A program made the translations under genes and the position numbers. This document shows positions 1,559 through 14,841 of a DNA stretch of 15,700 nt, one piece after another. The stretch comes from Promethearchaeota archaeon (GTDB lineage: Archaea; Asgardarchaeota; Lokiarchaeia; Sigyniarchaeales; SOKP01), in NCBI GenBank assembly GCA_018238625.1, contig JABCSY010000097.1, positions 1-15,700 on the forward strand, read 5' to 3'. The notes beneath the pieces were generated by a model. The model saw only the letters and a list, made by a program, of their open reading frames with translations. It did not search any database and was not told the origin of the DNA. Position 1 is the stretch's first letter, and each line of letters begins with the position of its first letter.

Positions 1559-1966
1559 ATGACAGCGAAAGATTCTAAATCTGAAGACGAATGGAAGCAA
1601 AAATTAACTAAAGAACAGTATCGCGTGTTAAGGTTAAAAGGAACCGAACGACCATTCTCAGGAAAATATTGGAATAATCGCGAAAAAGGGGTTTATTATT
1701 GTACTGGGTGTGGGTTTCCCCTATTTAATTCAAGCACTCAGTTCGAATCTGGTTTCGGCTGGCCTAGCTTTTCAGTCCCTATAAACGATAAAAATGTCGA
1801 AATACAGTCAGATCTCAGTTTAGGAATGAAAAGAGAAGAAGTATTATGCAACGAATGTGGAGGTCATTTGGGACATGTATTTAACGACGGCCCTAAACCT
1901 TCAGGCTTACAATATTGCATTAATTCAATTTCCTTAAATTTTAAACCAGAAGATAAAAAAGATTAG
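1559..1966 (+). CDS. msrB: Peptide-methionine (R)-S-oxide reductase MsrB
   Basis: GTERPF, two Zn-binding CxxC motifs (CTGC, CNEC), GWPSF, GHLGHVFNDGP and catalytic YCINS. The ATG at 1559 is preferred over the GTG at 1508 because the extension is AT-rich and contains a TATA-like tract. Confidence 0.93.
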   Translation: MTAKDSKSEDEWKQKLTKEQYRVLRLKGTERPFSGKYWNNREKGVYYCTGCGFPLFNSSTQFESGFGWPSFSVPINDKNVEIQSDLSLGMKREEVLCNECGGHLGHVFNDGPKPSGLQYCINSISLNFKPEDKKD

Positions 1967-2029
1967 CTTATACAACCTTTACTTTTGCTATAAAATAATA
2001 ATTGTGAATTTTTTACCTACTCTACAGTC

Positions 2030-2488
2030 TTAAAATTGAATACTTGAACGAGGGCGGTATTCTTTTAGAACCATATTAGAAATAGTCTTCGTTACGTATT
2101 CTGTCTCATTCAACACCCTAATAAAATGATGGACGTCTTCTGCTTCTTTAAAGCGACAAATTAAAGCAGCGGATTGCTCCCCTGTAGTATGGAAGACAGA
2201 ACAAACCTCCGGAATTTTTGATATTTGGTCCAAAATTTCAGCTGTGTGTTTACCATCAATTTGTATTCTTATTAAAAATGTTAACTTATAACCTAGCTTT
2301 TCGTTGTTGAGTTTAAGTGTATAACCCTCTATTATACCATTCTTTTCGAGTTTTGCAATTCTATTATGGATAGTGCCGATAGAGATGTTTAACTTATCTT
2401 GGATAACTCGATAAGACGTTTTAGCGTTTTTTTGCAAGATTTTTAAGATTTCCCGATCGATATCGTCTAAGCCTTTTTCTTTTGTCAT
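2030..2488 (-). CDS. Lrp/AsnC family transcriptional regulator
   Basis: N-terminal HTH (LDDIDREILKILQKNAKTSY...TIHNRIAKLEKNGIIEGY) and a C-terminal RAM domain (VCSVFHTTGE); 152 aa. Confidence 0.93.
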   Translation of the reverse strand: MTKEKGLDDIDREILKILQKNAKTSYRVIQDKLNISIGTIHNRIAKLEKNGIIEGYTLKLNNEKLGYKLTFLIRIQIDGKHTAEILDQISKIPEVCSVFHTTGEQSAALICRFKEAEDVHHFIRVLNETEYVTKTISNMVLKEYRPRSSIQF

Positions 2489-2532
2489 TTTTAAATTAGA
2501 CCAAAAAGAGTGATATATTCTTTAAAATTGTT

Positions 2533-2596
2533 CAACAATTCATTATTTTTTGTAAAATTTCTATTACAACAATTCAATATTTATTGCAAAATTTAT
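2533..2596. repeat. Imperfect tandem direct repeat, 34-bp period, in the divergent lrp/thermosome intergenic region
   Basis: CAACAATTCATTATTTTTTGTAAAATTTCT (2533-2562) vs CAACAATTCAATATTTATTGCAAAATTTAT (2567-2596); 26 of 30 positions identical by eye. Confidence 0.75.
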
Positions 2597-2706
2597 AATT
2601 TTTGCTATTGAAGCGTTTTACATATAAATGATCTCCAAATCATAAAATTATTATTTAATTCTTCTTATATTTCTTTATATTAAAAATAAAAAAAAAACGA
2701 AAAATT

Positions 2707-4293
2707 ATGTCTGTACCAATAATAATATTAAAAGAAGGAACTGAGGAAACTAAAGAAAAAGAAGCTCGAATGCAAAACATAAATGCGATTTTAGCAATTA
2801 CCGAATCTGTAAAGTCTACTCTTGGACCAAAGGGTATGAATAAAATGCTTGTAGATTCTATAGGAGACGTAACGATAACGAATGATGGTGCCGAAATATT
2901 AAAGAAGCTTGATATCGATAATGTTGCTGCGAATATGATGGTAAATGTAGCCAAATCGATTGACGACGATATCGGTGATGGTACTACTACAGCTGTCATC
3001 TTCTCTGCTACTTTATTGGGAAACGCTCTAGAATTAATTGAACAAGGCATACATCCAAAACCTATTACTCATGGATTTCGCATGGCAGCAAAGAAATCTT
3101 TAGAAATTATAAATGAGATCGCTGTTAAAATATCTCAAGACGACGATAAAATTCTTATTAATGTCGCTAAAACTGCTATGAACGCTCAAGATATTATAGG
3201 GGTAAAAGATTATTTTGCAGAATTAACTTTACAAGCTATAAAACACGTAAAGGGAGACGCTAAAGATACTTTTTCGAAAGTAGGGAACGTATTAATTATT
3301 AAGGTGCCCGGAAAATCGCTCAAAGAGTCAGAGTTAATAAATGGAGTCTACATTGCGAAAGAACGAGTCAATCCCGCCATGCCAGAAGTTGTAAAAAATG
3401 CGAAAATAGCTGTTATTAAAAGAAAATTAGATGTTGTTAAAACAGAATTCGATTCCCAAATTAGAATTTCTAACCCAGCTGACATTCAAAAGTTTCTCGA
3501 TCAAGAAGATAAAATCCTGCAAGATTACTTAAAGATCTTTAAAGATTTAGGAGTGAATATGATCGTTAATAATCAAGACATTTCCGATAAATTCGGTGCG
3601 TATTTAGTGAAAGAAGGAATCGTTGCGATAAAAAATCTCGGCGATTCAGACATAAAAGCAGTAACTAAAGCTACTGGAGCGAAAAAAATTGCTGATCTCC
3701 ACTCTTTATCCGAAGAAGATTTAGGATTTGCAGAAAAAGTAAAATTTGAAAAACTAGCTAACAACGATTATGTTTTATTTAGTGGATGTAAAAACCCTAA
3801 GTCAGTATCAATAATACTAAAAGGAGGCTTAGAGAAAATCTTAGATTCCGCAGAAATTACTTTACACGATGTACTCTCCGTAGTTGCTAAAGTAATGGAC
3901 ACAGAAGCCGTGGTTGCTGGTGGTGGCGCTATATATATCGAACTTGCGAAGAGACTGAGAGAATATGCGAATCAAATTAGCGGAAAAGAACAACTTGCAG
4001 TAAACGCTTTTGCTATAGCACTAGAAGAAATTCCAAAAACTCTAATCAAAAACGCGGGATTAGACGAAATTGAGAATATGACGGAATTACGCGCTGCTCA
4101 CAAAACAGATAACGAAAAATGGTTTGGAATTGATACTTTAACTAATAAGATCGAAGATAATTTTAAAAAAGGGATAGTTGAACCCGCTGCTCTTATTAAC
4201 CATGTAATCAAAGCGGGTAGCGAATTAGCAAATTTAATTTTAAGAGTAGATAGAATTATCAGCGCTAAAGGTTCTAAACTTCCTGGATTATAA
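2707..4293 (+). CDS. Thermosome subunit (group II chaperonin, TCP-1/cpn60 family), divergent paralogue
   Basis: STLGPKGMNKML, TITNDG, GDGTTT, LHD (catalytic Asp388), VAGGGA and LILRVDRII. Confidence 0.95.
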   Translation: MSVPIIILKEGTEETKEKEARMQNINAILAITESVKSTLGPKGMNKMLVDSIGDVTITNDGAEILKKLDIDNVAANMMVNVAKSIDDDIGDGTTTAVIFSATLLGNALELIEQGIHPKPITHGFRMAAKKSLEIINEIAVKISQDDDKILINVAKTAMNAQDIIGVKDYFAELTLQAIKHVKGDAKDTFSKVGNVLIIKVPGKSLKESELINGVYIAKERVNPAMPEVVKNAKIAVIKRKLDVVKTEFDSQIRISNPADIQKFLDQEDKILQDYLKIFKDLGVNMIVNNQDISDKFGAYLVKEGIVAIKNLGDSDIKAVTKATGAKKIADLHSLSEEDLGFAEKVKFEKLANNDYVLFSGCKNPKSVSIILKGGLEKILDSAEITLHDVLSVVAKVMDTEAVVAGGGAIYIELAKRLREYANQISGKEQLAVNAFAIALEEIPKTLIKNAGLDEIENMTELRAAHKTDNEKWFGIDTLTNKIEDNFKKGIVEPAALINHVIKAGSELANLILRVDRIISAKGSKLPGL

Positions 4294-4305
4294 AATGTAA
4301 ATTAC

Positions 4306-4356
4306 TTTGTTTTTTCTTAATTTTTTTATTCTTTTTGATTTATTTTCTTTTATTTT
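4306..4356 (+). terminator. Oligo-T tract, probable archaeal intrinsic terminator of the thermosome gene
   Basis: Several T4-T7 runs directly after the TAA at 4293. Confidence 0.5.
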
Positions 4357-4394
4357 AGAACATTGTTTAAAAATTTTTCAATTTTTCACTAACT

Positions 4395-4413
4395 TCAAAA
4401 AGTTTTTTATAAA
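4395..4413 (+). promoter_or_regulatory. Candidate BRE/TATA promoter for pckG
   Basis: Purine-rich CAAAAAG followed by TTTTTTATAAA, about 55 nt upstream of the ATG. The AT-rich background weakens the call. Confidence 0.35.
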
Positions 4414-4464
4414 AATTTCACTTTTTTATCCATAAGCTTAAAATATTTATTGAATTGAATTAGG

Positions 4465-6357
4465 ATGGACATTACAAAAGATTTTGTGAATTTTGTGGAC
4501 AGAGATTTAATATCTCAAGACGACGTCGAAAAATTGTTTAATTTAAAGAATGAACACGTGTTAAAGATTATAAAACAATTTGTTGACTTATGTAAACCTA
4601 GTAAGGTTACAGTGATTTCTGATTCTAATGAAGATATCGAATACGTGAGACAAAAAACCATCGACATCAACGAAGAAATTAAACTTCAGATAAGTGGTCA
4701 TACTGTTCATTACGATAGCTTTTACGATCAAGCAAGAGATAAAGAAAACACTAAAGTACTAATTCCTAAAGGCGAATATAGGAGCCCTTGGATAAACACA
4801 ATGGATAGGGATGAAGGACTCAAAGAAGTATTGGAAATTATGGATGGATCAATGAAAGGAAAAGAATGTCTTGTACGATTTTTCTGTCTTGGTCCAATAA
4901 ATTCTAAATTTACAATTGGAGCTCTACAACTTACGGATTCGTTTTACGTCGCACATTCAGAAGACCTTTTGTATCGTGTCGGCTACGAAGAATTCAAGGA
5001 TCTTAATGGTTCTGATGAATTCTTTTACTTCATCCATTCTGCCGGTGAACTCGATGGAAATCCCCCAGTTACTAAAAACATCAACAAACGCCGCATATAT
5101 GTAGATTTACAAGAAGATAAGGTTTTGTCCGTAAATAATCAATACGCTGGCAACTCTTTAGGATTAAAGAAATTAGCTCTACGATTGGCAATAAATAAGG
5201 CAAATAATGAAGATTGGCTCACAGAACATTATTTCATATTGGGAGTTCGTCCTACAGGAAAAAATCGCACAACTTATTTTACTGGAGCTTTTCCAAGTGC
5301 TTGTGGAAAAACTTCAACGGCTATGCTTCCAGGACAACTAATTGTAGGAGACGATATTGCATATCTTCGTATCTGGGAAGATGGATATACACATGCTGTA
5401 AATATAGAAAAGGGAATATTTGGAATTATAAAAGATGTAAATCCTAAAAACGATCCCGTAATTTACGAAGCGCTTATAACACCAAGAGAATTAATTTATT
5501 CTAATGTTCTCATAAAGGACGGAAAGCCATATTGGCTCGGGATGGGTAAGGACCACCCTAAAGAAGGCTTTAATTTCTCTGGTGATTGGTTTGAAGGAAA
5601 AACTGACGAAAATGGGAGTAATATCCTTCTCGCCCATCCAAATGCCCGGTACACAATAAATCTTTCCGACCTATCTAATTGCGATCCAAAATTAGAAGAC
5701 CCTAATGGCGTACCAATCCACGGTATTTTTTATGGCGGGAGAGATTCAGATACTATGCCGCCTGTCGTAGAAAGTCTAAGTTGGGAGTATGGAATCTTTA
5801 TGGGAGCTACCATTGAATCTGAAACAACATCAGCAACACTAGGGGCGGTAGGTGTTAGAAAAGCTAGCCCAATGGCGAATCTTGATTTCTTGGTTGTTCC
5901 TCTTGGTAAATATTTAAAAAATCACCGCAAATTTGGTAATCGATTAAAACATTGTCCAAAAGTATTCTCTACTAATTACTTTCTTAAAGGTAAAGACGGA
6001 AAGTATCTAAATGGAATATTGGATAAGAAAGTATGGGTTATTTGGGCAGAAGGCCGTACTCAAGGAGAGTTCGAAGCGATTGAAACGCCGATTGGATATC
6101 TTCCAAAATATGACGATCTGAAAGCATTGTTTAAATTAGAACTAGATAAAGATTATTCTCAAGAAGATTACACAGAGCAATTTAAGTTAAAAATCAAAAA
6201 ATTGCTTGATAAGTTGGATCGCATGGAAAAAATGTATAAGACAGAAAAAGATATTCCAAATTTTTTCTGGGAAGTTCTTACTAAACAAAGATCAGAATTA
6301 AAAAAATTATTGAAAAAATACGGTAAAGATGTTATCTTGCCCTCTGATTTGTCGTAA
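4465..6357 (+). CDS. pckG: Phosphoenolpyruvate carboxykinase (GTP)
   Basis: DQAR, YAGNSLGLKK, WLTEH, kinase-1a FPSACGKTSTAM, VGDDIA, HPNARY and YGGR motifs. Confidence 0.96.
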   Translation: MDITKDFVNFVDRDLISQDDVEKLFNLKNEHVLKIIKQFVDLCKPSKVTVISDSNEDIEYVRQKTIDINEEIKLQISGHTVHYDSFYDQARDKENTKVLIPKGEYRSPWINTMDRDEGLKEVLEIMDGSMKGKECLVRFFCLGPINSKFTIGALQLTDSFYVAHSEDLLYRVGYEEFKDLNGSDEFFYFIHSAGELDGNPPVTKNINKRRIYVDLQEDKVLSVNNQYAGNSLGLKKLALRLAINKANNEDWLTEHYFILGVRPTGKNRTTYFTGAFPSACGKTSTAMLPGQLIVGDDIAYLRIWEDGYTHAVNIEKGIFGIIKDVNPKNDPVIYEALITPRELIYSNVLIKDGKPYWLGMGKDHPKEGFNFSGDWFEGKTDENGSNILLAHPNARYTINLSDLSNCDPKLEDPNGVPIHGIFYGGRDSDTMPPVVESLSWEYGIFMGATIESETTSATLGAVGVRKASPMANLDFLVVPLGKYLKNHRKFGNRLKHCPKVFSTNYFLKGKDGKYLNGILDKKVWVIWAEGRTQGEFEAIETPIGYLPKYDDLKALFKLELDKDYSQEDYTEQFKLKIKKLLDKLDRMEKMYKTEKDIPNFFWEVLTKQRSELKKLLKKYGKDVILPSDLS

Positions 6358-6413
6358 AAGTAAAATTATTACCAAAAAACAGATTACATGACGAGAAAAA
6401 TAAATTTAAAACT

Positions 6414-7094
6414 TTATAACAATAGTTTTAAGCCATGTCGCACCTTGTAAGTTCTTTGGAGCCTGTCAACCTCAATAAACCTCTTTATTTCAAGGTTGTT
6501 TAACAAATCTCTCATCTCCATAGGATTTTTTTCTAGCTTTTCAGCCAATCCGTCAATATCTGATTCATATGAACGAAGTACTGTGAGAAGGGAAGAATAA
6601 TTATCGTATATCAGATTTACAAGATATTTTAAAGATTCTTTTAAATTTTCTCCTGTCCTTGTGCTTGTCGAAAAAATTACAGCTTCGTCTCGTAAGTAAT
6701 TCTGTGACCTTACTATCTCAGCGTGTCTCGCACCAGCAATATCTTGCTTGTTTGCTAAATAAACTATTGGCGTATCAGCCCCTATCGATTTTCTAAGGGC
6801 ATTTAATATGATTAATGCATCTTCATCTTTTTCGGGATGAGCTGCGTCAAAAATGAAAATAACCCCATCAGAACCTTGAAGGATTACATCTCTCATAACC
6901 TTGAATCTTAATAAACCAGGAGTTCCAAATAAAAAGACATCAAAACCATTTAATCTAACAATACCTAAATCCATTCCAACCGTATAAAACTTATTATCCC
7001 TAGCTTTTGCTTCGACATTTAAAGCTTTTTCGTCTAAAGATTTGATAAAACTCGACTTTCCGCACTGGAGAGGGCCTGATACAACTATCTTCAT
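6414..7094 (-). CDS. Small P-loop GTPase (MglA/conservon-CvnD-like) with a probable C-terminal winged-helix domain
   Basis: G1 GPLQCGKS, G2 TVGMD, G3 FGTPG, G4 NKQD, G5-like STST. The C-terminal ~60 aa show a helix-helix-helix plus beta-hairpin pattern (IDGLAEKL..MRDLLNNLEIKRFIEVDRLQRTYKV). Confidence 0.85.
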   Translation of the reverse strand: MKIVVSGPLQCGKSSFIKSLDEKALNVEAKARDNKFYTVGMDLGIVRLNGFDVFLFGTPGLLRFKVMRDVILQGSDGVIFIFDAAHPEKDEDALIILNALRKSIGADTPIVYLANKQDIAGARHAEIVRSQNYLRDEAVIFSTSTRTGENLKESLKYLVNLIYDNYSSLLTVLRSYESDIDGLAEKLEKNPMEMRDLLNNLEIKRFIEVDRLQRTYKVRHGLKLLL

Positions 7095-7321
7095 TTTGTC
7101 GGACTTTTTTTTTGATTACATGTTATTATTTGAATATTAACTTGTTTTATATTATTATATTGATTAATATCCATATAATATGAGCTTTTTCTTATAGAAA
7201 AAATTAAATCAATTTTTTTATTTTTTTAAAACCTATTTATTACTTTTTAATAAGTCAATTCTATTAATCGCAATATATTTGATTTCTAACTGCTTAGATA
7301 TCTGAAACCTTAAGAATCGAA

Positions 7322-7399
7322 AGATTAACGAAAATGTCATCATTCTTCTCAGAGAAGAAGCGCTCTATTGCCAAATTGACATTTTTCGAGCAAAAATCT
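7322..7399. other. Nested inverted-repeat element (possible structured RNA or operator array)
   Basis: AGATT(7322-26)/AATCT(7395-99) and AAAATGTCA(7331-39)/TGACATTTT(7377-85) arms, with an inner palindrome TTCTTCTC-A-GAGAAGAA (7343-7359). The segment is GC-richer than the flanking intergenic DNA. Confidence 0.5.
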
Positions 7400-7490
7400 A
7401 TTAAAATAAGAAAAAAAAAATCATAATTTTGATCAATAAAACATTTTTTTTATAAATTCTCGACATAAAACTTAACTATTTCGTCAAATA

Positions 7491-7507
7491 GAGAAATATT
7501 TATATAT
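7491..7507 (+). promoter_or_regulatory. Candidate BRE-TATA promoter for the hdr-met cluster
   Basis: GAGAAA (BRE-like) followed by TTTATATA (7499-7506). This would imply a 5' UTR of about 115 nt. Confidence 0.45.
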
Positions 7508-7644
7508 GCTTTTAACCTATTAAGTAAATTATAAAAATATAAGTTTTTCAATTAAACAATTATTTTCAAAAAGGACAATTAATTTTAGATAAGCAACGAA
7601 AATTAATAAAAAAACATTAAAAAATAATCAAAAACTGAATAAAT

Positions 7645-10600
7645 ATGCCAAATAGTAATATAATGGTAATTGGTGCTGGAATTTCGGGAATTGAAGCCAG
7701 CCTTACTCTGGGTGAGCAAGGTTATAAAGTAATTCTAGTCGAAAAAACATCCTCGGTTGGTGGACGTATGGCTCAGCTTGATAAAACATTTCCAACCTTA
7801 GATTGTTCGATTTGTATTTTAGCACCAAAAATGGTGGAAGTAGCTAGACATCCTAACGTAGAACTTCTCATGTATTCAGAAGTTCAAGAAATATCTGGCG
7901 AAGCAGGTAATTTTAAAGCAAAGGTCGTTAAGAAAGCGCGATATGTTGATTGGGATAAATGTACAGGTTGCGGCGCTTGTATGGAAAAGTGTCCCATGAA
8001 AAAGATTCCGAGCGAGTTCGAAGAAGAAATGGGAAACCGCACAGCAATATATATACCTTTTCCACAAGCCGTACCAAGAAAGGCAGTGATTGATGCTGAA
8101 AATTGCCTATATATAACGAAAGAAGCGTGCCAATTATGCGAAAAAGAGTGTGAAGCTGGGGCTATTACTTGGGATATGAAAGACGAAGTAGTTGAGTATG
8201 ATGTGGCATCAATAATAGTTGCTACAGGAATAGACCTATTGGATCCAACACCGATAGTTAGATATCATTACGGAGAGTATCCTAATGTTATTACAGCAAT
8301 GCAGTATGAACGTTTATTAAGCGCATCTGGTCCTACTGAAGGACAATTGCTTAGACCCTCAGATAAAAAACATGCCCACGAAATTGGTTTTATTGGGTGC
8401 GTTGGTTCTCGAAATGAGGATTTCTGTGCTTATTGTTCGAAATTCTGTTGCATGTATATGGCCAAAGAAGGGGTTGTCACTCGAGAACACGCTCCAGACA
8501 CAAATGTGACGATATTTTTCAACGATACTCGTGTAATCGGAAAAAATCAAGAAGAATTCATTGAAAGAGCAAAAGACGAATACAAACTGATTTATTATCG
8601 CGGCATTCCCGGTGATATTCGAGAAGATCCCAAAAATCATAACCTTTTTGTAAAACACGCGAACCTAGATACGGGAGACGTTGAAACTAGTGAATTTGAT
8701 TTAGTTGTGTTGGCCAACGCAGTTATCCCCCGTAAAGGAACCGAAAAACTTGCTGAAATGTTGAGTATTGAAACAAACGAATTAGGGTTCTTTAAAACAA
8801 AAAACTCGACCGAAGATCTAAGGTCTACTCGGGATGGGATTTTTGTAACAGGTTCTTGTCAATCTCCTGACGATATAGCTAATTCAGTGGCGAAAGCTGG
8901 AGGGGCTGCGTCTTTAGCAGCTTTACATGCCGTTCCTTTAAGTCCTGAAGAATTAGAGGTTATTTTACCTCCCCTGAAAGTAGTAAATCCCAGAGACGAA
9001 CCTAGAATAGGAGTATTTGTTTGTAAGTGTGGGGTAAATATAGGGGGATACATGGACGTTCCGGCGCTTGTTGAGTATTCCAAAACGCTTCCAAATGTAG
9101 TTTTCTCGATGGACAATAAATATAGTTGTTCAAGCCTCACACAAGACATTATTAAGGAAAAGATTGTGGAATTAGACTTAAACCGAGTCGTAGTTGCTGC
9201 GTGCACGCCAAGAACTCACGAACCATTATTTCAAAAAACTATTCGAGAAGCAGGACTAAACGAATATTTATTTTCTTTCGTAAGTATTCGAGAATTAGAT
9301 TCTTGGGTTCATATGAAGGAATATGAAAAGGCGACGGATAAAGGAAAAGATCTAATAAGAATGGGCGTAGCGCGTGTACGATTTCAAAAATCAGAAATTA
9401 GAATAAAGGGAAGCGTCGTCCCAGAAGCGTTAATAATCGGTGGAGGTATCGCTGGAATGTCTGCTGCTATGGAAATTGCCAAAAAAGGTTTTAAAGTACA
9501 CCTTGTAGAGAAAGATGATAAATTAGGTGGGCAATTAAACCTTATTTATAAAATCAATTTCGATAGAATTGACTCAAAACAGTTTTTAGAAGAGAAACTT
9601 AAAGAATTTAATGGGTTAAAAAATGTCACGGCTTACTTAAATTCAGAAGTTGCAGAAGTTAAGGGTTCAATAGGTGATTTTAACATCAAAGTTAAAAATT
9701 TGACTGATGAGAAAAGCACGGATTTAAATGTTGGAATAATAATCGCTGCTACTGGCGCTTACGAATATAAACCAAAAGGTTGGTACCATTACGGGGAAGA
9801 CGAGAGAATAATGACTCAACTAGAACTATCTCAAAAGTTAAGAGACGATGAACTAAAGGATGGCGAGACTTTCGTCTTTATCCACTGCGTTGCTTCGCGA
9901 CAACCTGAGGGTGGTAATGGAGTTACGTACTGTTCCTTAATATGTTGTTCTGAATCTATAAGACACGCTTTGTACGTAAAAGAAAATTACCCTAATTCGC
10001 AAATCTATGTTCTTTATAGAGATATACGCGTAGGAACTGATGAAGAACAATATTACTGGAAAGCTCGTGAAAATATCAACTACATTCGATTTAACGATTA
10101 CCCCGAAGTTGATCTCGTTAATGGAAAAATTAATGTCAAGGTTAACGATATTTTAACTCAAATAAATCTTAACATCGAAGCCGACAAGGTAGTCCTGTCA
10201 ACGCCTTTAGTACCTTATGATACTAAAAAACTTGGAGAATTCATAAAGTGCGCCAGAGACCAAAATGGGTTCTTTTTAGAAGCTCACGTTAAATTAAGAC
10301 CTGTCGATTTTGCGACTGATGGAATATACTTAGCTGGGACGGCTCACGGCCCAAAAGGTATTGCTGATTCAATATCTCAGGGAAGAGCTGCTGCGGCTCA
10401 CGCGCTAATCCCGTTAATCTCTGGAGAAGTAGAAAACGAACCACTGGTTTCAGTTGTCAATCCGGCGTTATGTATAGCCTGTCAAAAATGCGAGGAGGTA
10501 TGTAACTTCGGAGCTATTGGAGTCAATTTCGATAATGAAGTGTTGGTTTCAGAGTCTAATCCTTTATTGTGTAAAGGGTGTGGAGATTGTTCGGCAGAGT

Positions 10601-11130
10601 GCCCTGCAGGGGCAATTACCATGCAACATTTTGCTGACGATCAAATATACCCAATGATTACAGAAGCAGTCAAAGGAGCTTATATAGACGAAAGACCTAG
10701 GATTGTAGCTTTCTTATGCAACTGGTGCAGTTATGCGGGAGCAGATACTTGTGGCGTAAGTAGATTTCAATACCCCCCTAATATTAGACCTATTAGAGTT
10801 ATGTGTACTGGAAGAATTCCGAAGAGTTTCGTATTACAAGCGTTTTTGGAAGGTGCTGATGGAGTGATTATTGGTGGATGCCACATTGGAGATTGTCACT
10901 ATATAGAAGGTAACTACGACATGTTAAGACGTTATAACGAGATTGAAGAAACGCTAGAAAGCGTAGGAATTAATCCCGAACGTTACCGCCTTGAATGGAT
11001 ATCAGCCAGCGAAGGCAAACGGTTCTCTCAAGTTATTACCGAATTCGTTAATAAAATAAAAGAACTTGGACCACTAAGTAGAACAGGCGACAAAATAAAA
11101 AAAAAAGAAAAAGTTAAGGAGGGTGCTTAA
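7645..11130 (+). CDS. hdrA: Large heterodisulfide reductase subunit A-like flavoprotein: two HdrA FAD modules fused to a C-terminal MvhD [2Fe-2S] domain
   Basis: Module 1: GAGISG, DKTFPTLDCSICIL, inserted 2x[4Fe-4S] (CTGCGAC..CP; C..CQLCEKEC), CVGSR..YCSKFCC. Module 2: IGVFVCKCG..ACTPRTHEPLF, GGGIAG, CVASR..YCSLICC, C-terminal ferredoxin (CIACQKCEEVC, CKGCGDCSAEC). MvhD: FLCNWCSYAGAD, RVMCTGR, GGCHIGDCHY, WISASEG. Confidence 0.95.
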   Translation: MPNSNIMVIGAGISGIEASLTLGEQGYKVILVEKTSSVGGRMAQLDKTFPTLDCSICILAPKMVEVARHPNVELLMYSEVQEISGEAGNFKAKVVKKARYVDWDKCTGCGACMEKCPMKKIPSEFEEEMGNRTAIYIPFPQAVPRKAVIDAENCLYITKEACQLCEKECEAGAITWDMKDEVVEYDVASIIVATGIDLLDPTPIVRYHYGEYPNVITAMQYERLLSASGPTEGQLLRPSDKKHAHEIGFIGCVGSRNEDFCAYCSKFCCMYMAKEGVVTREHAPDTNVTIFFNDTRVIGKNQEEFIERAKDEYKLIYYRGIPGDIREDPKNHNLFVKHANLDTGDVETSEFDLVVLANAVIPRKGTEKLAEMLSIETNELGFFKTKNSTEDLRSTRDGIFVTGSCQSPDDIANSVAKAGGAASLAALHAVPLSPEELEVILPPLKVVNPRDEPRIGVFVCKCGVNIGGYMDVPALVEYSKTLPNVVFSMDNKYSCSSLTQDIIKEKIVELDLNRVVVAACTPRTHEPLFQKTIREAGLNEYLFSFVSIRELDSWVHMKEYEKATDKGKDLIRMGVARVRFQKSEIRIKGSVVPEALIIGGGIAGMSAAMEIAKKGFKVHLVEKDDKLGGQLNLIYKINFDRIDSKQFLEEKLKEFNGLKNVTAYLNSEVAEVKGSIGDFNIKVKNLTDEKSTDLNVGIIIAATGAYEYKPKGWYHYGEDERIMTQLELSQKLRDDELKDGETFVFIHCVASRQPEGGNGVTYCSLICCSESIRHALYVKENYPNSQIYVLYRDIRVGTDEEQYYWKARENINYIRFNDYPEVDLVNGKINVKVNDILTQINLNIEADKVVLSTPLVPYDTKKLGEFIKCARDQNGFFLEAHVKLRPVDFATDGIYLAGTAHGPKGIADSISQGRAAAAHALIPLISGEVENEPLVSVVNPALCIACQKCEEVCNFGAIGVNFDNEVLVSESNPLLCKGCGDCSAECPAGAITMQHFADDQIYPMITEAVKGAYIDERPRIVAFLCNWCSYAGADTCGVSRFQYPPNIRPIRVMCTGRIPKSFVLQAFLEGADGVIIGGCHIGDCHYIEGNYDMLRRYNEIEETLESVGINPERYRLEWISASEGKRFSQVITEFVNKIKELGPLSRTGDKIKKKEKVKEGA

Positions 11131-11133
11131 AAA

Positions 11134-11670
11134 ATGTCTGATAAAGTCGTAAAACAATCTAAAGATTTAGATAACAATTTTAGGTACGAAATTAGCGAAA
11201 AAGTGGGGGCAAAATCTTTATTGAAGTGTATTCAATGTGGAGTATGTAGCTCTGGTTGCACGGTAACGGAATATGTTGATTTACAACCTCACAGAGTTGT
11301 TGCTTCATGCCTTCTAGGATTAAGAGAAGAAGTTTTATCGAGCAACGCTATATGGACGTGCTCATTATGCCATCGGTGTACAGAAAGATGTCCAAAGAAC
11401 GTAGATTATTCGTTTATCTTAGCGCTTCTAAGAAACATGGCAGTGGAAGAAGGAAACGTGCCGATAGAATATTCTGCTACGATAAATACGATTTATAACA
11501 ATGGATTTGTAGTACCTTATACGGGTGGAATGAAAACTACTATAGACAGAAGAAGAAACAAAATGGATTTACCAGAAATCGTAGGTCCTAACTTAGATGA
11601 GATTCAATTCATAATTAGAGAGACTGGACTAGGAAACTTAATTAAAAAATCAGAGGAGGATGAAAAATAA
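11134..11670 (+). CDS. hdrC: Heterodisulfide reductase subunit C (2x[4Fe-4S])
   Basis: CIQCGVCSSGC and IWTCSLCHRCTERCP; lies between hdrA and hdrB; SD-like AAGGAGGGTG at 11116-11125. Confidence 0.93.
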   Translation: MSDKVVKQSKDLDNNFRYEISEKVGAKSLLKCIQCGVCSSGCTVTEYVDLQPHRVVASCLLGLREEVLSSNAIWTCSLCHRCTERCPKNVDYSFILALLRNMAVEEGNVPIEYSATINTIYNNGFVVPYTGGMKTTIDRRRNKMDLPEIVGPNLDEIQFIIRETGLGNLIKKSEEDEK

Positions 11671-12551
11671 TGGAATATGCGTTGTATTTAGGGTGTACGA
11701 TCCCTTTGAAAATGCCACACTTTGAAAAAGCCTTTCGAGAAATCTCTAAAATATTAGAAATAAAGTATAAGGAGATGGAGGGAGCGGGTTGTTGCCCCGA
11801 TCCTGTAGCAACTCAATCGCTCAATATTGATACTTGGCTAACATTAGGAGCTAGAAATCTAGCTATTGCCGAAAAACTTGGATTAGACATAATGACCGTG
11901 TGTTCTGGATGCTACGAGACCTTAAAAACGGTCCATGTTTTATTAGAAGAAGACAAGGCAGCATTTAAGAGAGTAAACGCCATTCTAAAAAAGCTAGGCA
12001 TCGAATATAAGGGGACTTCAAAAGTTCTTCATTTCGCGGAATTGTTTAGTCAAGATGAGATGCTTGAGAAGATTAAAAGTAAAGTTGTTAAACCGTTAGA
12101 TAGTTTAAACATTGCTTCGCATTATGGTTGTCATTTAATACGACCTTCAAAAATAATGCAATTTGACGATCCCGAACGACCTGAGAGTATGGATAAAATT
12201 CTAAGAGCTATAGGAGCTTCGCCCGTAGAATTTGCAGCTAAACTCGAATGCTGTGGATTCTGCGCTAGATTACAAGAAGAAATCGGAATGGATTTAGTCG
12301 AAGCGAAAATGACAGACTTAAAAAATCTCGACAAAGAAGTAGATGGAATGATTGCCGTTTGTCCCGCTTGTGCTACACAATACGATAGAAAAGAAAAATT
12401 GATCTCCAGAAAAAGTGAGAAAGAACTCGATATTCCAATTCTATATCTAGCAGAATTAATGGCAATCGCTTTTGGAGTCGATACAGCAAAGTTATCTTTG
12501 AAACAACGAAGCGTAAAACCAACGAAATTAATGGAAAAATTAAAAATATAA
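11670..12551 (+). CDS. hdrB: Heterodisulfide reductase subunit B (two CCG domains)
   Basis: YLGC..GCCPDP..VCSGCY and HYGCH..ECCG..VCPAC motifs; TAATG stop/start overlap with hdrC; SD-like GAGGAGGA at 11653-11660. Confidence 0.95.
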   Translation: MEYALYLGCTIPLKMPHFEKAFREISKILEIKYKEMEGAGCCPDPVATQSLNIDTWLTLGARNLAIAEKLGLDIMTVCSGCYETLKTVHVLLEEDKAAFKRVNAILKKLGIEYKGTSKVLHFAELFSQDEMLEKIKSKVVKPLDSLNIASHYGCHLIRPSKIMQFDDPERPESMDKILRAIGASPVEFAAKLECCGFCARLQEEIGMDLVEAKMTDLKNLDKEVDGMIAVCPACATQYDRKEKLISRKSEKELDIPILYLAELMAIAFGVDTAKLSLKQRSVKPTKLMEKLKI

Positions 12552-12635
12552 CAATAAAATTTTTTTTACGATTTAAACAAAATAATAAAAATCTAATAAA
12601 ATCTGAAAAAACAAGAATAAAAAAGCGTGTATGAT

Positions 12636-13331
12636 ATGATAGTTACACAACTAAAAGACATAAACGAAATTTATGAAATGATTAAGGGCTATAACAAGAT
12701 ATTAATAGTTGGATGCGATGGTTGCTGTCAACCACCTCGATCTATAAATGAAGCAAAAGTTCTTGGACAACTTTTAGAATTGAAAGCTCGAACTGAAAGT
12801 AAGGAGTTAAAATGGAAAGCAATAACGGTATTAAGACAGTGTGACGATAGAATCGCAGCAACAACAGTGAGACCTTACATCGACGACTACGAAGCTATAG
12901 TCTCTCTTGCTTGTGGGCTTGGAGTCGTAATGTTGAATAAAGTTCTTCCCAGTAAGCTAACTTTCCCCGCCCAAGATAGCATGTTTGGAGGCGTACAAAA
13001 CAGTGGTGAGAATAATTTCATCGAATACTGTGAGGAGTGCGGAGATTGTATAATTGGAGAGACGGGAGGATTATGTCCCCGAGCGGGATGTGCTAAACAT
13101 TTAAGTAACGGCCCCTGTGGGGGAATGGTAGATGGAATGTGTGAAGTAGGTGGTTATACGCTTCCTTGCGCGTGGGTGCGCATTTGGGAAAGGTTAAAAG
13201 AATTTAATAGACTAGATCTCTTTAAAAAATATAGACCTCCAAGGGACTTTCGCACTTCTACCAGTCCTGGATACTTAGTTATCAATAAAGAGTATACTAA
13301 CGAAGAAGAAAAAAAGGAGGTAGAAAGTTAA
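12636..13331 (+). CDS. metV: Methylene-tetrahydrofolate reductase small Fe-S/Zn subunit (MetV, MTHFR_C domain)
   Basis: IVGCDGC, RQCD, LACGLG, CEECGDC..TGGLCP..CAK.LSNGPCGG..G.CEV..CAW. The ATG at 12636 (MIVTQ) is preferred over the GTG at 12627. Confidence 0.9.
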   Translation: MIVTQLKDINEIYEMIKGYNKILIVGCDGCCQPPRSINEAKVLGQLLELKARTESKELKWKAITVLRQCDDRIAATTVRPYIDDYEAIVSLACGLGVVMLNKVLPSKLTFPAQDSMFGGVQNSGENNFIEYCEECGDCIIGETGGLCPRAGCAKHLSNGPCGGMVDGMCEVGGYTLPCAWVRIWERLKEFNRLDLFKKYRPPRDFRTSTSPGYLVINKEYTNEEEKKEVES

Positions 13332-14294
13332 ATGGCAAAAAGAAAGGCTTATAGTCAATTATGCAAAGCGATCGAAGCGGGCCATTTTGTTTTCACAGGC
13401 GAATTAGAGCCAAAGAAAATTCTGGATCTTAGCGAGATTATCCATTCCGCAAAGGAAATGAAAAAAACTAAAAGAATCGTAGCAGCAAATGTAACGGACG
13501 GTCCACAAGGCGATGCCTACATGGCATCATTGGTTCCAAGCTATAAAATCCAAGAAGAAGCGGGAATTGAAGCGGTATGGCAAGTCACAGTTAGAGATCG
13601 AAATCGAGTAGCGCTTTTTGGGGACGTGGTAGCTGGCGCAGTTTTGGGGTTGAAGAACATTCTAACTCTAACGGGAGACCATACAGCTCTTGGAGACCAC
13701 AAAAAGGCTCGCGCAGTTTATGACATTGATAGCACACAGTTCTGCGAAATGCTTTCTATTATGATTGATGAGGGAACTGACTACGAAGGAAACGAATTAA
13801 AGGGAGGCAAAATAGAAATGAATTTTGGTTGCGTTGCTAACCCTAACAGTAACCCTCGCGAACCTGAAATCCTTAAGGTTGGTCGTAAAGTAGATCGTGG
13901 TGTTGATTTTATCCAAACACAAACAGCGTTTGATATTGACGACGCAAAAGACTTCCTAAAAGATCTAGAACGATACAATGTTCCAGTACTTCTTGGGCTC
14001 TTTCCATTAAAAAGCCACGGAATCGCCTGGTATTTCGATAACTATATCCCTGGAGTTAGCGTCCCAAAAGACCTTTTGAAAGCTCTTAAAAAAGCAGAAA
14101 AGGATAATAAAGGAAACAAACCTGGCAAATATGCAGCTATTGATAAGATAAACATTGAATTTTTCAAGCCTTTTATTGCTGAGATCAAGAAATCTACTAA
14201 AGCAGCAGGCATTCATTGTATGGCAGTTGAATACGAAAGACTTTTCGCTCCATTACTAGGAGAATACCCCGAATATGTAAAATATTCAATGTAA
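13332..14294 (+). CDS. metF: 5,10-methylenetetrahydrofolate reductase catalytic subunit
   Basis: FVFTGELEP (catalytic Glu), AANVTD, QVTVRDRNRVAL, LTLTGDH, VANP, FIQTQ and GIHCMA; abuts the metV stop; SD AAGGAGGT at 13314-13321. Confidence 0.93.
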   Translation: MAKRKAYSQLCKAIEAGHFVFTGELEPKKILDLSEIIHSAKEMKKTKRIVAANVTDGPQGDAYMASLVPSYKIQEEAGIEAVWQVTVRDRNRVALFGDVVAGAVLGLKNILTLTGDHTALGDHKKARAVYDIDSTQFCEMLSIMIDEGTDYEGNELKGGKIEMNFGCVANPNSNPREPEILKVGRKVDRGVDFIQTQTAFDIDDAKDFLKDLERYNVPVLLGLFPLKSHGIAWYFDNYIPGVSVPKDLLKALKKAEKDNKGNKPGKYAAIDKINIEFFKPFIAEIKKSTKAAGIHCMAVEYERLFAPLLGEYPEYVKYSM

Positions 14295-14379: not shown

Positions 14380-14841
14380 ATGAAAAACCTAGATGAGAAA
14401 GATAAACGCATTTTAGAAATGCTTATCGAAGATTCACGGCGTCCTTATCGAGAAATTGCCGAAGAGGTTGGCTTATCCGAATCAACGGTAAGAAAACGCG
14501 TTATTAAATTACAAAACGAAAAAGTTATCGAAAAATTTACGATTCGAATATGTAGAGATGACGAGAGATGTATAATTGCTTTTTTAACGGTAATTCCCAA
14601 TAACGAATCGGAAATTAAAGAATTGATAAGAGAAACGCAGATTATCCCTCAGTGTGAGGAGGTTTATTTTCTCGCAGGCCAATGTGGCGTTTTAATAAAG
14701 GTTAACGTTCCAGAGATTAGCGAATTAGATGCGCTTGTTGAAAATTTTCGAGGGCGTAACGATGTAAAGAGCGTAGAAAGAATTTGTGTGGTTTTAAAGC
14801 CGATAAAGACGACCAATCGCGACGAGCGGTTACCTATTTAA
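14380..14841 (+). CDS. Lrp/AsnC family transcriptional regulator
   Basis: HTH LDEKDKRILEMLIEDSRRPYREIAEEVGLSESTVRKRVIKL and RAM domain EEVYFLAGQC; 153 aa. Confidence 0.93.
   Translation: MKNLDEKDKRILEMLIEDSRRPYREIAEEVGLSESTVRKRVIKLQNEKVIEKFTIRICRDDERCIIAFLTVIPNNESEIKELIRETQIIPQCEEVYFLAGQCGVLIKVNVPEISELDALVENFRGRNDVKSVERICVVLKPIKTTNRDERLPI

Follow-up and report, generated by a model that had tools for sequence, protein, structure and literature searches.

Which enzyme interconverts the methylene and methyl forms of the one-carbon carrier in those Lokiarchaeia in which Mer, the F420-dependent reductase of other archaea, is missing? The question is raised by five adjacent genes in a stretch of 15,700 nucleotides (assembly GCA_018238625.1, contig JABCSY010000097.1; hereafter the window, that is, the whole stretch of DNA analysed), which is the entire 15.7-kb contig C68 of a Promethearchaeota metagenome-assembled genome (MAG) of 4.29 Mb in 201 contigs (completeness 97.9%, contamination 7.6%). 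An earlier interpretation made from the letters alone (the sequence-only reading) had seen in these genes a candidate electron-bifurcating methylene-tetrahydrofolate (methylene-THF) reductase (MTHFR). We read them, tentatively and with slightly less than even confidence, as a MetVF reductase of the Hdr type that takes over the step left vacant by Mer, probably works on tetrahydromethanopterin (H4MPT) and is coupled to ferredoxin and to a disulfide. The cluster is composed as follows:

7645 to 11130, + strand: hdrA-mvhD, tandem HdrA::MvhD protein of 1161 aa (Pfam, NCBIfam and structure alignments)
11134 to 11670, + strand: hdrC, 178 aa, with two CxxCxxCxxxC motifs (TIGR03290, 92 bits, below the cut-off)
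11670 to 12551, + strand: hdrB, 293 aa, with two CCG domains (TIGR03288, 274 bits)
12552 to 12635, + strand: hdrB-metV spacer of 84 nt, AT-rich and starting with a T8 run (sequence read)
12636 to 13331, + strand: metV, 231 aa, with the start of the open reading frame at 12627 or 12636 (PF12225, 100 bits, 6e-29)
13332 to 14294, + strand: metF, 320 aa, catalytic subunit of the MTHFR family (PF02219, 86 bits)

The identities were obtained by Pfam and NCBIfam profile searches of the window proteins and confirm those proposed from sequence alone for all five products (HdrA-MvhD fusion, HdrC, HdrB, MetV and MetF). Frame coordinates and direct reading also agree with the earlier description of five co-oriented genes at 7645-14294 (+), separated by a 3-nt gap (hdrA-hdrC), a TAATG overlap (hdrC-hdrB), 84 nt (hdrB-metV) and 0 nt (metV-metF). 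The 84-nt gap holds for the ATG at 12636, a start that is backed by the conserved N-terminus MII(T/V)xxK of about 50 MetV homologues. The internal Shine-Dalgarno motifs reported by the same reading are present in part: a GGAGG-type motif precedes hdrC, hdrB and metF, and none is found ahead of hdrA or metV. Both CCG motifs of HdrB are complete (C9, C41, C42, C78, C81; C154, C194, C195, C231, C234). MetV combines a Rossmann-like N-terminal half with a Cys-rich DUF5981 half, with 12 Cys invariant (n = 23 sequences); its AlphaFold model (pLDDT 74.7) gave only generic Rossmann-like matches (TMq ≤0.35) in a PDB search. By sequence search, no solved MetV structure was found, and MetF retrieved only distant MTHFRs.

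Judged from its domain make-up, the protein encoded by the first gene joins two HdrA copies, each of which has lost what the other keeps, and ends in an adaptor domain:

7645 to 8964, + strand: HdrA module 1 (residues ~1-440), colinear with 5odc_A 146-511
8995 to 10659, + strand: HdrA module 2 (residues 451-1005), aligned to 5odc_A 2-161 and 510-646
10696 to 11073, + strand: MvhD ([2Fe-2S] adaptor) domain (residues 1018-1143), PF02662 FlpD at 2.4e-53 (residues 1020-1142)

Module 1 has a FAD/TrxR-like domain, the motif DCSIC (C54 and C57, equivalent to Cys194/197 of 5odc_A) and an inserted 2x[4Fe-4S] ferredoxin domain, and is devoid of the N-terminal domain and of the C-terminal ferredoxin domain. 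In module 2 an N-terminal cluster domain (C460, C462, C495, C520) is followed by a second FAD/TrxR-like domain and the C-terminal 2x[4Fe-4S] ferredoxin domain (C943-C986); this module is devoid of DCSIC (Cys197) and of the inserted ferredoxin domain. The alignment to the HdrA of 5odc runs in three stretches (672 bits), in which residues 6-376 correspond to 146-511, residues 451-610 to 2-161 and the third stretch to 510-646, and residues 1017-1148 match the MvhD chains 8rvu_F and 5odc_D. The parts of a bifurcating HdrABC (FAD domain, N-terminal cluster with Cys197, inserted and C-terminal ferredoxin domains) are each found once, split over the two modules. Neither of the GxGxxG sites and none of the cluster-binding Cys varies among 23 sequences whose identity goes down to 46%, and the HdrA-MvhD orthologues of relatives measure 1147-1165 aa. 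Pfam detected no NfnB/GltD-like NAD(P)H part (Fer4_20/GltD-type domain) in the window HdrA. Complementary modules have been described for HdrA fusions of anaerobic methanotrophs (ANME) and for Moorella HdrA, and were read as a built-in heterodimer (Chadwick et al., PMC9012536); in the ANME HdrA3/4 fusions the N-terminal domain lies on the N-terminal copy, whereas the module order is reversed in the window (PMC9012536).

The tandem nature of HdrA, as well as the T8 run that opens the hdrB-metV spacer, had been overlooked by the sequence-only reading. The protein passes the NF040770 HdrA2 model only through the sum of its two HdrA modules (1157 bits, cut-off 1100), and automatic annotation would call it CoB-CoM heterodisulfide reductase HdrA2. 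An HdrA-MvhD fusion is indeed shared with HdrA2B2C2 of Methanosarcina acetivorans, but the window protein, with its 1161 aa, is a tandem and matches the 777-position model in three stretches, and its partner gene is MetVF. Two more clusters built on a tandem HdrA plus MvhD are found in the same genome: C138:2905-15682 (L146) carries hdrC, hdrB, a split hdrA, mvhD, a tandem hdrA, mvhD, two ferredoxin-like genes and genes for a PyrK/NfnA-like flavoprotein and an FrhB-like protein, and C144:3477-9422 (L147) carries an FrhB-like gene, a CCG protein gene, a tandem hdrA and mvhD.

The association of this module with metVF was followed through related genomes. MetF homologues were located in 38 of the 41 genomes of the order, their neighbourhoods were fetched and the five proteins were mapped onto them; the same mapping was applied to other genera and families and to 79 named loci, with one genome per species. 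In a MetF tree of 76 rows (quick IQ-TREE run, SH-aLRT support only, 10 outgroup representatives), the window MetF falls inside a Lokiarchaeial clade (support 99) whose sister is a Bathyarchaeial clade, within an archaeal branch (support 100, 66 rows) to which sequences of Syntrophoarchaeum, Alkanophaga, Bathyarchaeia, Methanomethylicia and further Asgard archaea also belong. Outside the archaeal clade the nearest 50%-identity cluster reaches at most 38% identity, and the best 80 genome loci for MetF are all archaeal-type. Counted as distinct sequences of at least 58% identity with the Bathyarchaeial loci left out, in agreement with the tree, the Lokiarchaeial clade comprises 53 MetF sequences. 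By neighbourhood mapping, 31 of them have the window architecture (hdrA-mvhD/hdrC/hdrB/metV) beside metVF, and in 13 metV directly follows a tandem hdrA-mvhD that is a paralogue, with hdrB, a split hdrA and an mvhD lying farther upstream. In three the gene ahead of metV is a different one that also ends in MvhD, and the other six, although truncated at contig ends, are consistent with the pattern. None is devoid of an Hdr or MvhD neighbour, adjacency recurs in other lineages, and the Hdr-metVF linkage, for which the sequence-only reading had suggested a synteny survey, is beyond chance.

The variants within the clade keep one element fixed, in that MvhD is the constant partner of MetV, even in one variant without HdrBC. 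In this latter, found in two genomes of the same genus (G007, locus L020, 3544-6276; G004, locus L019) and accounting for two of the three cases with another MvhD-ending gene, metV is preceded by a gene for a 910-aa fusion of a GltD/NfnB-like flavoprotein (Fer4_20 + Pyr_redox_2) with 2x[4Fe-4S] and MvhD, no hdrBC lies nearby, and the domains make an NAD(P)H-linked MetVF possible. Outside the clade, the order metV-metF-hdrAD-hdrC-hdrB occurs in an Asgard MAG labelled Heimdallarchaeota (L061/L118), a divergent hdrB-C-AD / metVF arrangement in L115, and Hdr-MetVF adjacency also in Bathyarchaeia (L119, L137) and in Ca. Syntrophoarchaeum (L127); in Ca. Alkanophaga mvhD lies 2.7 kb from metVF, and in the Bathyarchaeial loci L107 and L137 a gene for [Fd+MvhD] adjoins metV. 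Two MAG contigs with bacterial labels, L113 ("Patescibacteria group bacterium") and L115 ("Pirellulales bacterium"), carry archaeal-type metF/metV, the second together with tandem hdrA-mvhD/hdrC/hdrB; mis-binning is likely, since their MetF sequences nest among Bathyarchaeia in the tree.

The metabolic setting is that of an H4MPT branch with one step missing. The genome encodes Mch, Ftr, Mtd, CdhC, CdhD and RFAP synthase (methanopterin biosynthesis), and a search for Mer gave no TIGR03555 match and, by tblastn with a true Asgard Mer, a best E of 0.79. Among 301 Asgard genomes, Mer exceeds the curated cut-off in 70, and in none of the 69 of the window's family, own genome included, where the best matches to the model are weak luciferase-like proteins (E 1e-31 to 1e-50). 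In the same family Mch is present in 68/71 genomes and MetF in 67/68. In several other Asgard families that possess a true Mer, the distance between metVF and mer is 0.3-6 kb, and this proximity ties archaeal MetVF to the H4MPT branch. Examples are metV-metF-mer in L148 (G047:C1:17000-24000) at 2112-4919, mer-metV-metF in L149 (G078) at 2084-4942 and metVF near mer in L150 (G052) at 1857-7316, with G063, G065, G068 and G074 by coordinates. The same gap is on record for Loki-3, where all six MAGs were reported without a typical mer and only a COG2141 candidate was offered (Yin et al., 2020, PMC8027215), in a text that mentions neither MetF nor Hdr. For ANME-1 and Ca. Syntrophoarchaeum, a replacement of Mer by MetF has been proposed, together with the suggestion that MetF may act on H4MPT-bound one-carbon units and may work with Hdr (PMC9012536, PMC10322722).

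The carrier is probably H4MPT rather than folate, because the step is the one that Mer catalyses in other archaea. The methylene-THF substrate assumed by the sequence-only reading finds no support in the gene content described above, in which both Mer and Fhs were not found, and a Mer-replacing role on methylene-H4MPT is at least as likely. As for the genes that the reading had proposed to look for, FolD and the archaeal CdhC/CdhD are encoded and Fhs is not detected. Its central idea, an Hdr module coupled to MetVF, gains from the conserved linkage and from the absence of Mer.

How such an enzyme may be wired is suggested by its parts. The redox modules of the bifurcating Mvh-Hdr complex are all present once, hydrogenase excepted, and the only other redox proteins of the operon are MetV and MetF; it is from this domain content that we infer electron bifurcation. 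In the predicted enzyme, MetF (flavin) and MetV (FeS) would dock at the port that MvhD forms with the fused HdrA's C-terminal ferredoxin domain, the place taken by the hydrogenase in Mvh-Hdr. The tandem HdrA would be its own heterodimer, with one complete bifurcation path: one branch would leave the flavin, pass the N-terminal cluster (to which module 1 contributes the completing Cys57) and then the inserted ferredoxin domain, and end at ferredoxin, and the other would lead through HdrC to the disulfide site of HdrB. The reaction would involve three substrates (methyl/methylene-pterin, ferredoxin and a disulfide/dithiol), would be reversible and would do without both F420 and NAD(P)H. This is the simplest scheme because the HdrB disulfide site and the inserted ferredoxin domain are both intact. 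Docking at the MvhD port is suggested by the fact that no variant separates MetV from MvhD and the ferredoxin domain that goes with it, by the pairing of the same tandem-HdrA and MvhD chassis with FrhB-like and PyrK/NfnA-like modules on C138 and C144, and by the bacterial system, in which mvhD precedes metV and MetV of S. ovata pulled down HdrA and MetF, not HdrB (PMC9430772). A complex prediction for MetF, MetV and the MvhD domain (residues 1006-1161) scored 0.26, against a mark of 0.32 and without controls, and has no bearing on binding.

The potentials concerned are about -320 mV for the CH2=/CH3-H4MPT couple, -500 mV for ferredoxin and -140 mV for the heterodisulfide. On these values, the three-substrate reaction would be near equilibrium and reversible with H4MPT; with folate, whose methylene-THF couple lies at -200 mV (PMC9430772), it would run toward methyl-THF. 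Extended to the whole family, the scheme would describe a Mer-free H4MPT methyl branch in which a reversible MetVF-Hdr enzyme gives methyl-/methylene-H4MPT the mid-potential place in a flavin-based bifurcation with ferredoxin and an Asgard disulfide, a generalization that seems somewhat doubtful at present.

The same genes could be wired as has been modelled for the Moorella and Sporomusa enzymes (PMC9430772, PMC6085437). Here an external donor, for which the group-3 [NiFe] hydrogenase and a module of FrhB-like type (F420/NAD(P)H) are candidates, would feed the fused MvhD, and the HdrA flavin would bifurcate between a ferredoxin branch and a branch through HdrC/HdrB to MetV/MetF, with the methylene-pterin replacing the heterodisulfide as high-potential acceptor. 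hdrB does adjoin metV in the window, candidate donors are encoded in the genome ([NiFe] hydrogenase genes on C95 and C109 and ten FrhB/FdhB-like matches), and with methylene-THF at the potential cited above the energetics would be favourable. However, a donor gene is absent from the window and from 31 of 31 full clusters, MvhD is held next to MetV in variants in which hdrBC is distant or absent, HdrB retains a complete disulfide-reducing site, and from H2 the methylene-H4MPT couple would leave almost no driving force on the potentials given. We consider this wiring unlikely. More improbable is that adjacency reflects co-regulation only, with a stand-alone ferredoxin-dependent MetVF, similar to the clostridial type-II enzyme, next to a separate Hdr. 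The T-run, AT-rich spacer and the missing Shine-Dalgarno motif of metV fit such a division, as do the Bathyarchaeial sister MetFV and the second and third MetVF pairs of the own genome, all of which stand alone, and MetVF of S. ovata is obtained by itself on purification and takes its electrons from reduced ferredoxin (PMC9430772). Yet the S. ovata subunits interact in pull-downs (PMC9430772), an Hdr or MvhD neighbour is kept in all 53 clade sequences through at least three rearranged architectures, and the adjacency recurs in other orders and other lineages.

A folate-specific and mainly anabolic or amino-acid-catabolic role (methionine; one-carbon units from serine, glycine and histidine), in which Hdr would do no more than deliver or withdraw electrons of low potential, could be read from the MTHFR family assignment of MetF, from FolD in the own genome and from the report of fhs, folD and metF in a partial tetrahydrofolate branch of cultured Lokiarchaeia (PMC12222021). 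It appears very improbable: Fhs was not found in a genome that is 97.9% complete, the second family of the order (f2, genus g2) has a MetF that is just 27-29% identical and sits on a separate long branch, an Hdr module would be a costly partner for an anabolic step, and other Asgard genomes carry metVF in a cluster with mer. The reductase in place of Mer has, for its part, several observations to contend with. We know of no disulfide that could serve as substrate in Asgard archaea, and H4MPT and THF cannot be told apart as carriers from sequence. The presence of FolD makes a folate pool probable. The Bathyarchaeial sister MetF, 56-60% identical, is arranged as metF-metV with no hdr within 7.5-10 kb. 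Since the spacer starts with a T run and metV has no GGAGG motif, metVF may be a separate transcript. The published bacterial models route electrons from HdrA through HdrCB to MetVF, not via MvhD, and S. ovata MetVF is obtained without Hdr (PMC9430772). Finally, the own genome has three MetVF pairs, and in four genomes of genus g13, family f1 (G059, G070, G149, G188), neither Mer nor a member of the Hdr-linked MetF clade was found; the second MetVF paralogue, the only MetVF there, may serve the Mer step.

The two extra MetV-MetF pairs (38-46% identical), at C120:9152-10824 (-) and C161:7305-8464 (+), have no hdr neighbours. In relatives the C120-type pair shares a contig with the Hdr-linked pair, at 5-18 kb (mostly 7-11 kb), so that C120 probably follows C68 on the chromosome. 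Around the two pairs lie genes for a radical SAM protein, for a ferredoxin/TrmB-like protein and for a product that matched no family; a tie between the second pair and methionine synthesis was considered and dropped, because these neighbours gave no informative families.

The spacer between hdrB and metV measures 46-99 nt in 18 of 18 relatives examined, and near the hdrB stop there is a run of 5-9 T in 17 of them and TTTT in one, a pattern that suggests partial termination and/or an internal promoter. Metatranscriptome contigs from three libraries of two studies (90-99% alike, DNA carry-over possible) cover 28, 27 and 23 of 30 cluster bins, with some bins uncovered and a lower depth over metV/metF in libraries X17 and X20, a difference that does not amount to a finding. 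Contigs of one run also cover the spacer, and among the listed records none bridges hdrB-metV with 31 letters on each side. The coverage is a weak hint of expression only.

Among characterized systems, the closest in composition is the Hdr-type (type IV) MTHFR MetFV-HdrCBA-MvhD of Moorella thermoacetica and Sporomusa ovata (PMC9430772, PMC6085437), with the acetogen side taken here from the text of these papers. The same six protein families stand in one cluster, HdrB/HdrC motifs and two flavin sites are shared, and the acetogen HdrA resembles module 2 of the window, with an N-terminal cluster domain, a TrxR-like domain without inserted ferredoxin domain and a C-terminal ferredoxin domain (PMC9430772). 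The gene order hdrCBA-mvhD-metVF is unlike that of the window (A::D-C-B-V-F, with MvhD fused), as the sequence-only reading had noted. Moreover, Moorella HdrA has an NfnB/GltD-like NAD(P)H-binding part (Kremp et al., PMC9430772), whereas module 1, a plain TrxR domain of HdrA that has kept its inserted ferredoxin domain, is free of such an insert; the window MetF belongs to the archaeal clade, and its host has an H4MPT branch. With methanogen MvhADG-HdrABC (PDB 5odc, 8rvu) the likeness extends over all HdrA domains and to MvhD, HdrB and HdrC, and includes the supply of Cys197 in trans, both kinds of ferredoxin domain (inserted and C-terminal) and the pair of CCG motifs. The window differs in fusing two HdrA copies asymmetrically, and MvhAG is not in the cluster, MetVF standing in its place. 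To our knowledge, no coenzyme M/coenzyme B metabolism exists in Asgard archaea. MetF of Ca. Syntrophoarchaeum and ANME-1 type falls in the same archaeal clade, and hdr genes lie beside metVF in L127, but as several separate hdrA and mvhD genes after metVF, whereas the window has one tandem HdrA::MvhD and hdrCB before metVF, an arrangement that is family-wide. The likeness to Mer is functional only: the same reaction step is proposed for MetVF, but Mer is a luciferase-like TIM barrel unrelated to the MTHFR family and uses another electron donor.

The bacterial Hdr-type MetVF MTHFR, the metFV-hdrA-mvhD genes of Ca. Syntrophoarchaeum and the hypothesis of MetF in place of Mer are already known, and the sequence-only reading overstated the novelty of the locus, since the latter two are in print (PMC9012536, PMC10322722). 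A description of an Hdr-MetVF cluster in Asgard archaea was not found in a literature search whose reach ended at subscription journals and supplements. New are the fixed architecture throughout the Lokiarchaeial family, a tandem HdrA::MvhD predicted to retain the ferredoxin-reducing domain and to have no NAD(P)H module, the match between this cluster and the published gap, the missing mer of Loki-3, and natural module-swap variants whose sequences point to MvhD as the port of MetV.

Lokiarchaeia are central to models of eukaryote origin built on hydrogen- or electron-dependent syntrophy, and a conserved Hdr-coupled MetVF is a concrete candidate for the Wood-Ljungdahl step left open in Loki-3 (PMC8027215). 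If the proposal is true, the electron carriers of the pathway would shift from F420 to ferredoxin and thiol, its energy balance would shift too, and the archaeal pathway would gain a new site of energy coupling; in the oxidative direction, methyl groups, for example from methoxylated aromatics, would give reduced ferredoxin. The cluster would also represent a natural Hdr-type MTHFR simpler than the bacterial ones, with no NADH module, an asymmetric fused HdrA and a single electron path.

The contig itself appears sound. Its GC of 0.345 is inside the range of the own genome, and the GTPase, PEPCK, thermosome, Lrp and MBL genes that flank the cluster also flank metVF in related genomes (neighbourhood survey), which argues against a chimera; the chimeric or bacterial origin that the sequence-only reading had named as a danger is not supported. 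The embedding among archaeal genes and the probable Asgard source that it proposed both hold: the thermosome subunit, Ras-like GTPase, GTP-PEPCK and two Lrp/AsnC regulators are archaeal/Asgard-like, and the MetF relatives at 94-97% identity are proteins of NCBI Lokiarchaeota/Promethearchaeota MAGs, as are the nearest genome loci by name. A few MAGs in the same MetF clade bear other Asgard phylum labels from their submitters. Pfam and NCBIfam searches of the window proteins found no hydrogenase (MvhAG) or Fdh gene, in line with the earlier remark on the missing donor module, and Rfam and tRNA scans of the window gave no RNA family and no tRNA. Besides the genes already named, the rest of the contig encodes a class-I aminoacyl-tRNA synthetase (W/Y type), MsrB and an MBL-fold protein. 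The features closest to the cluster, and the second regulator, are:

6414 to 7094, - strand: Ras/Arf-like small GTPase, conserved divergent neighbour of hdrA
7095 to 7644, + strand: AT-rich intergenic region of 550 nt, presumed hdrA promoter region (sequence read)
14380 to 14841, + strand: Lrp/AsnC-type regulator, directly downstream of metF
2030 to 2488, - strand: second Lrp/AsnC-type regulator of the window

The Lrp/AsnC gene after metF keeps this place in most of the related loci and is a possible regulator of the cluster. In the 550-nt region, TTTATATA-like and TTTTCAAAAAGG motifs are present, which also occur upstream of hdrA in several relatives.

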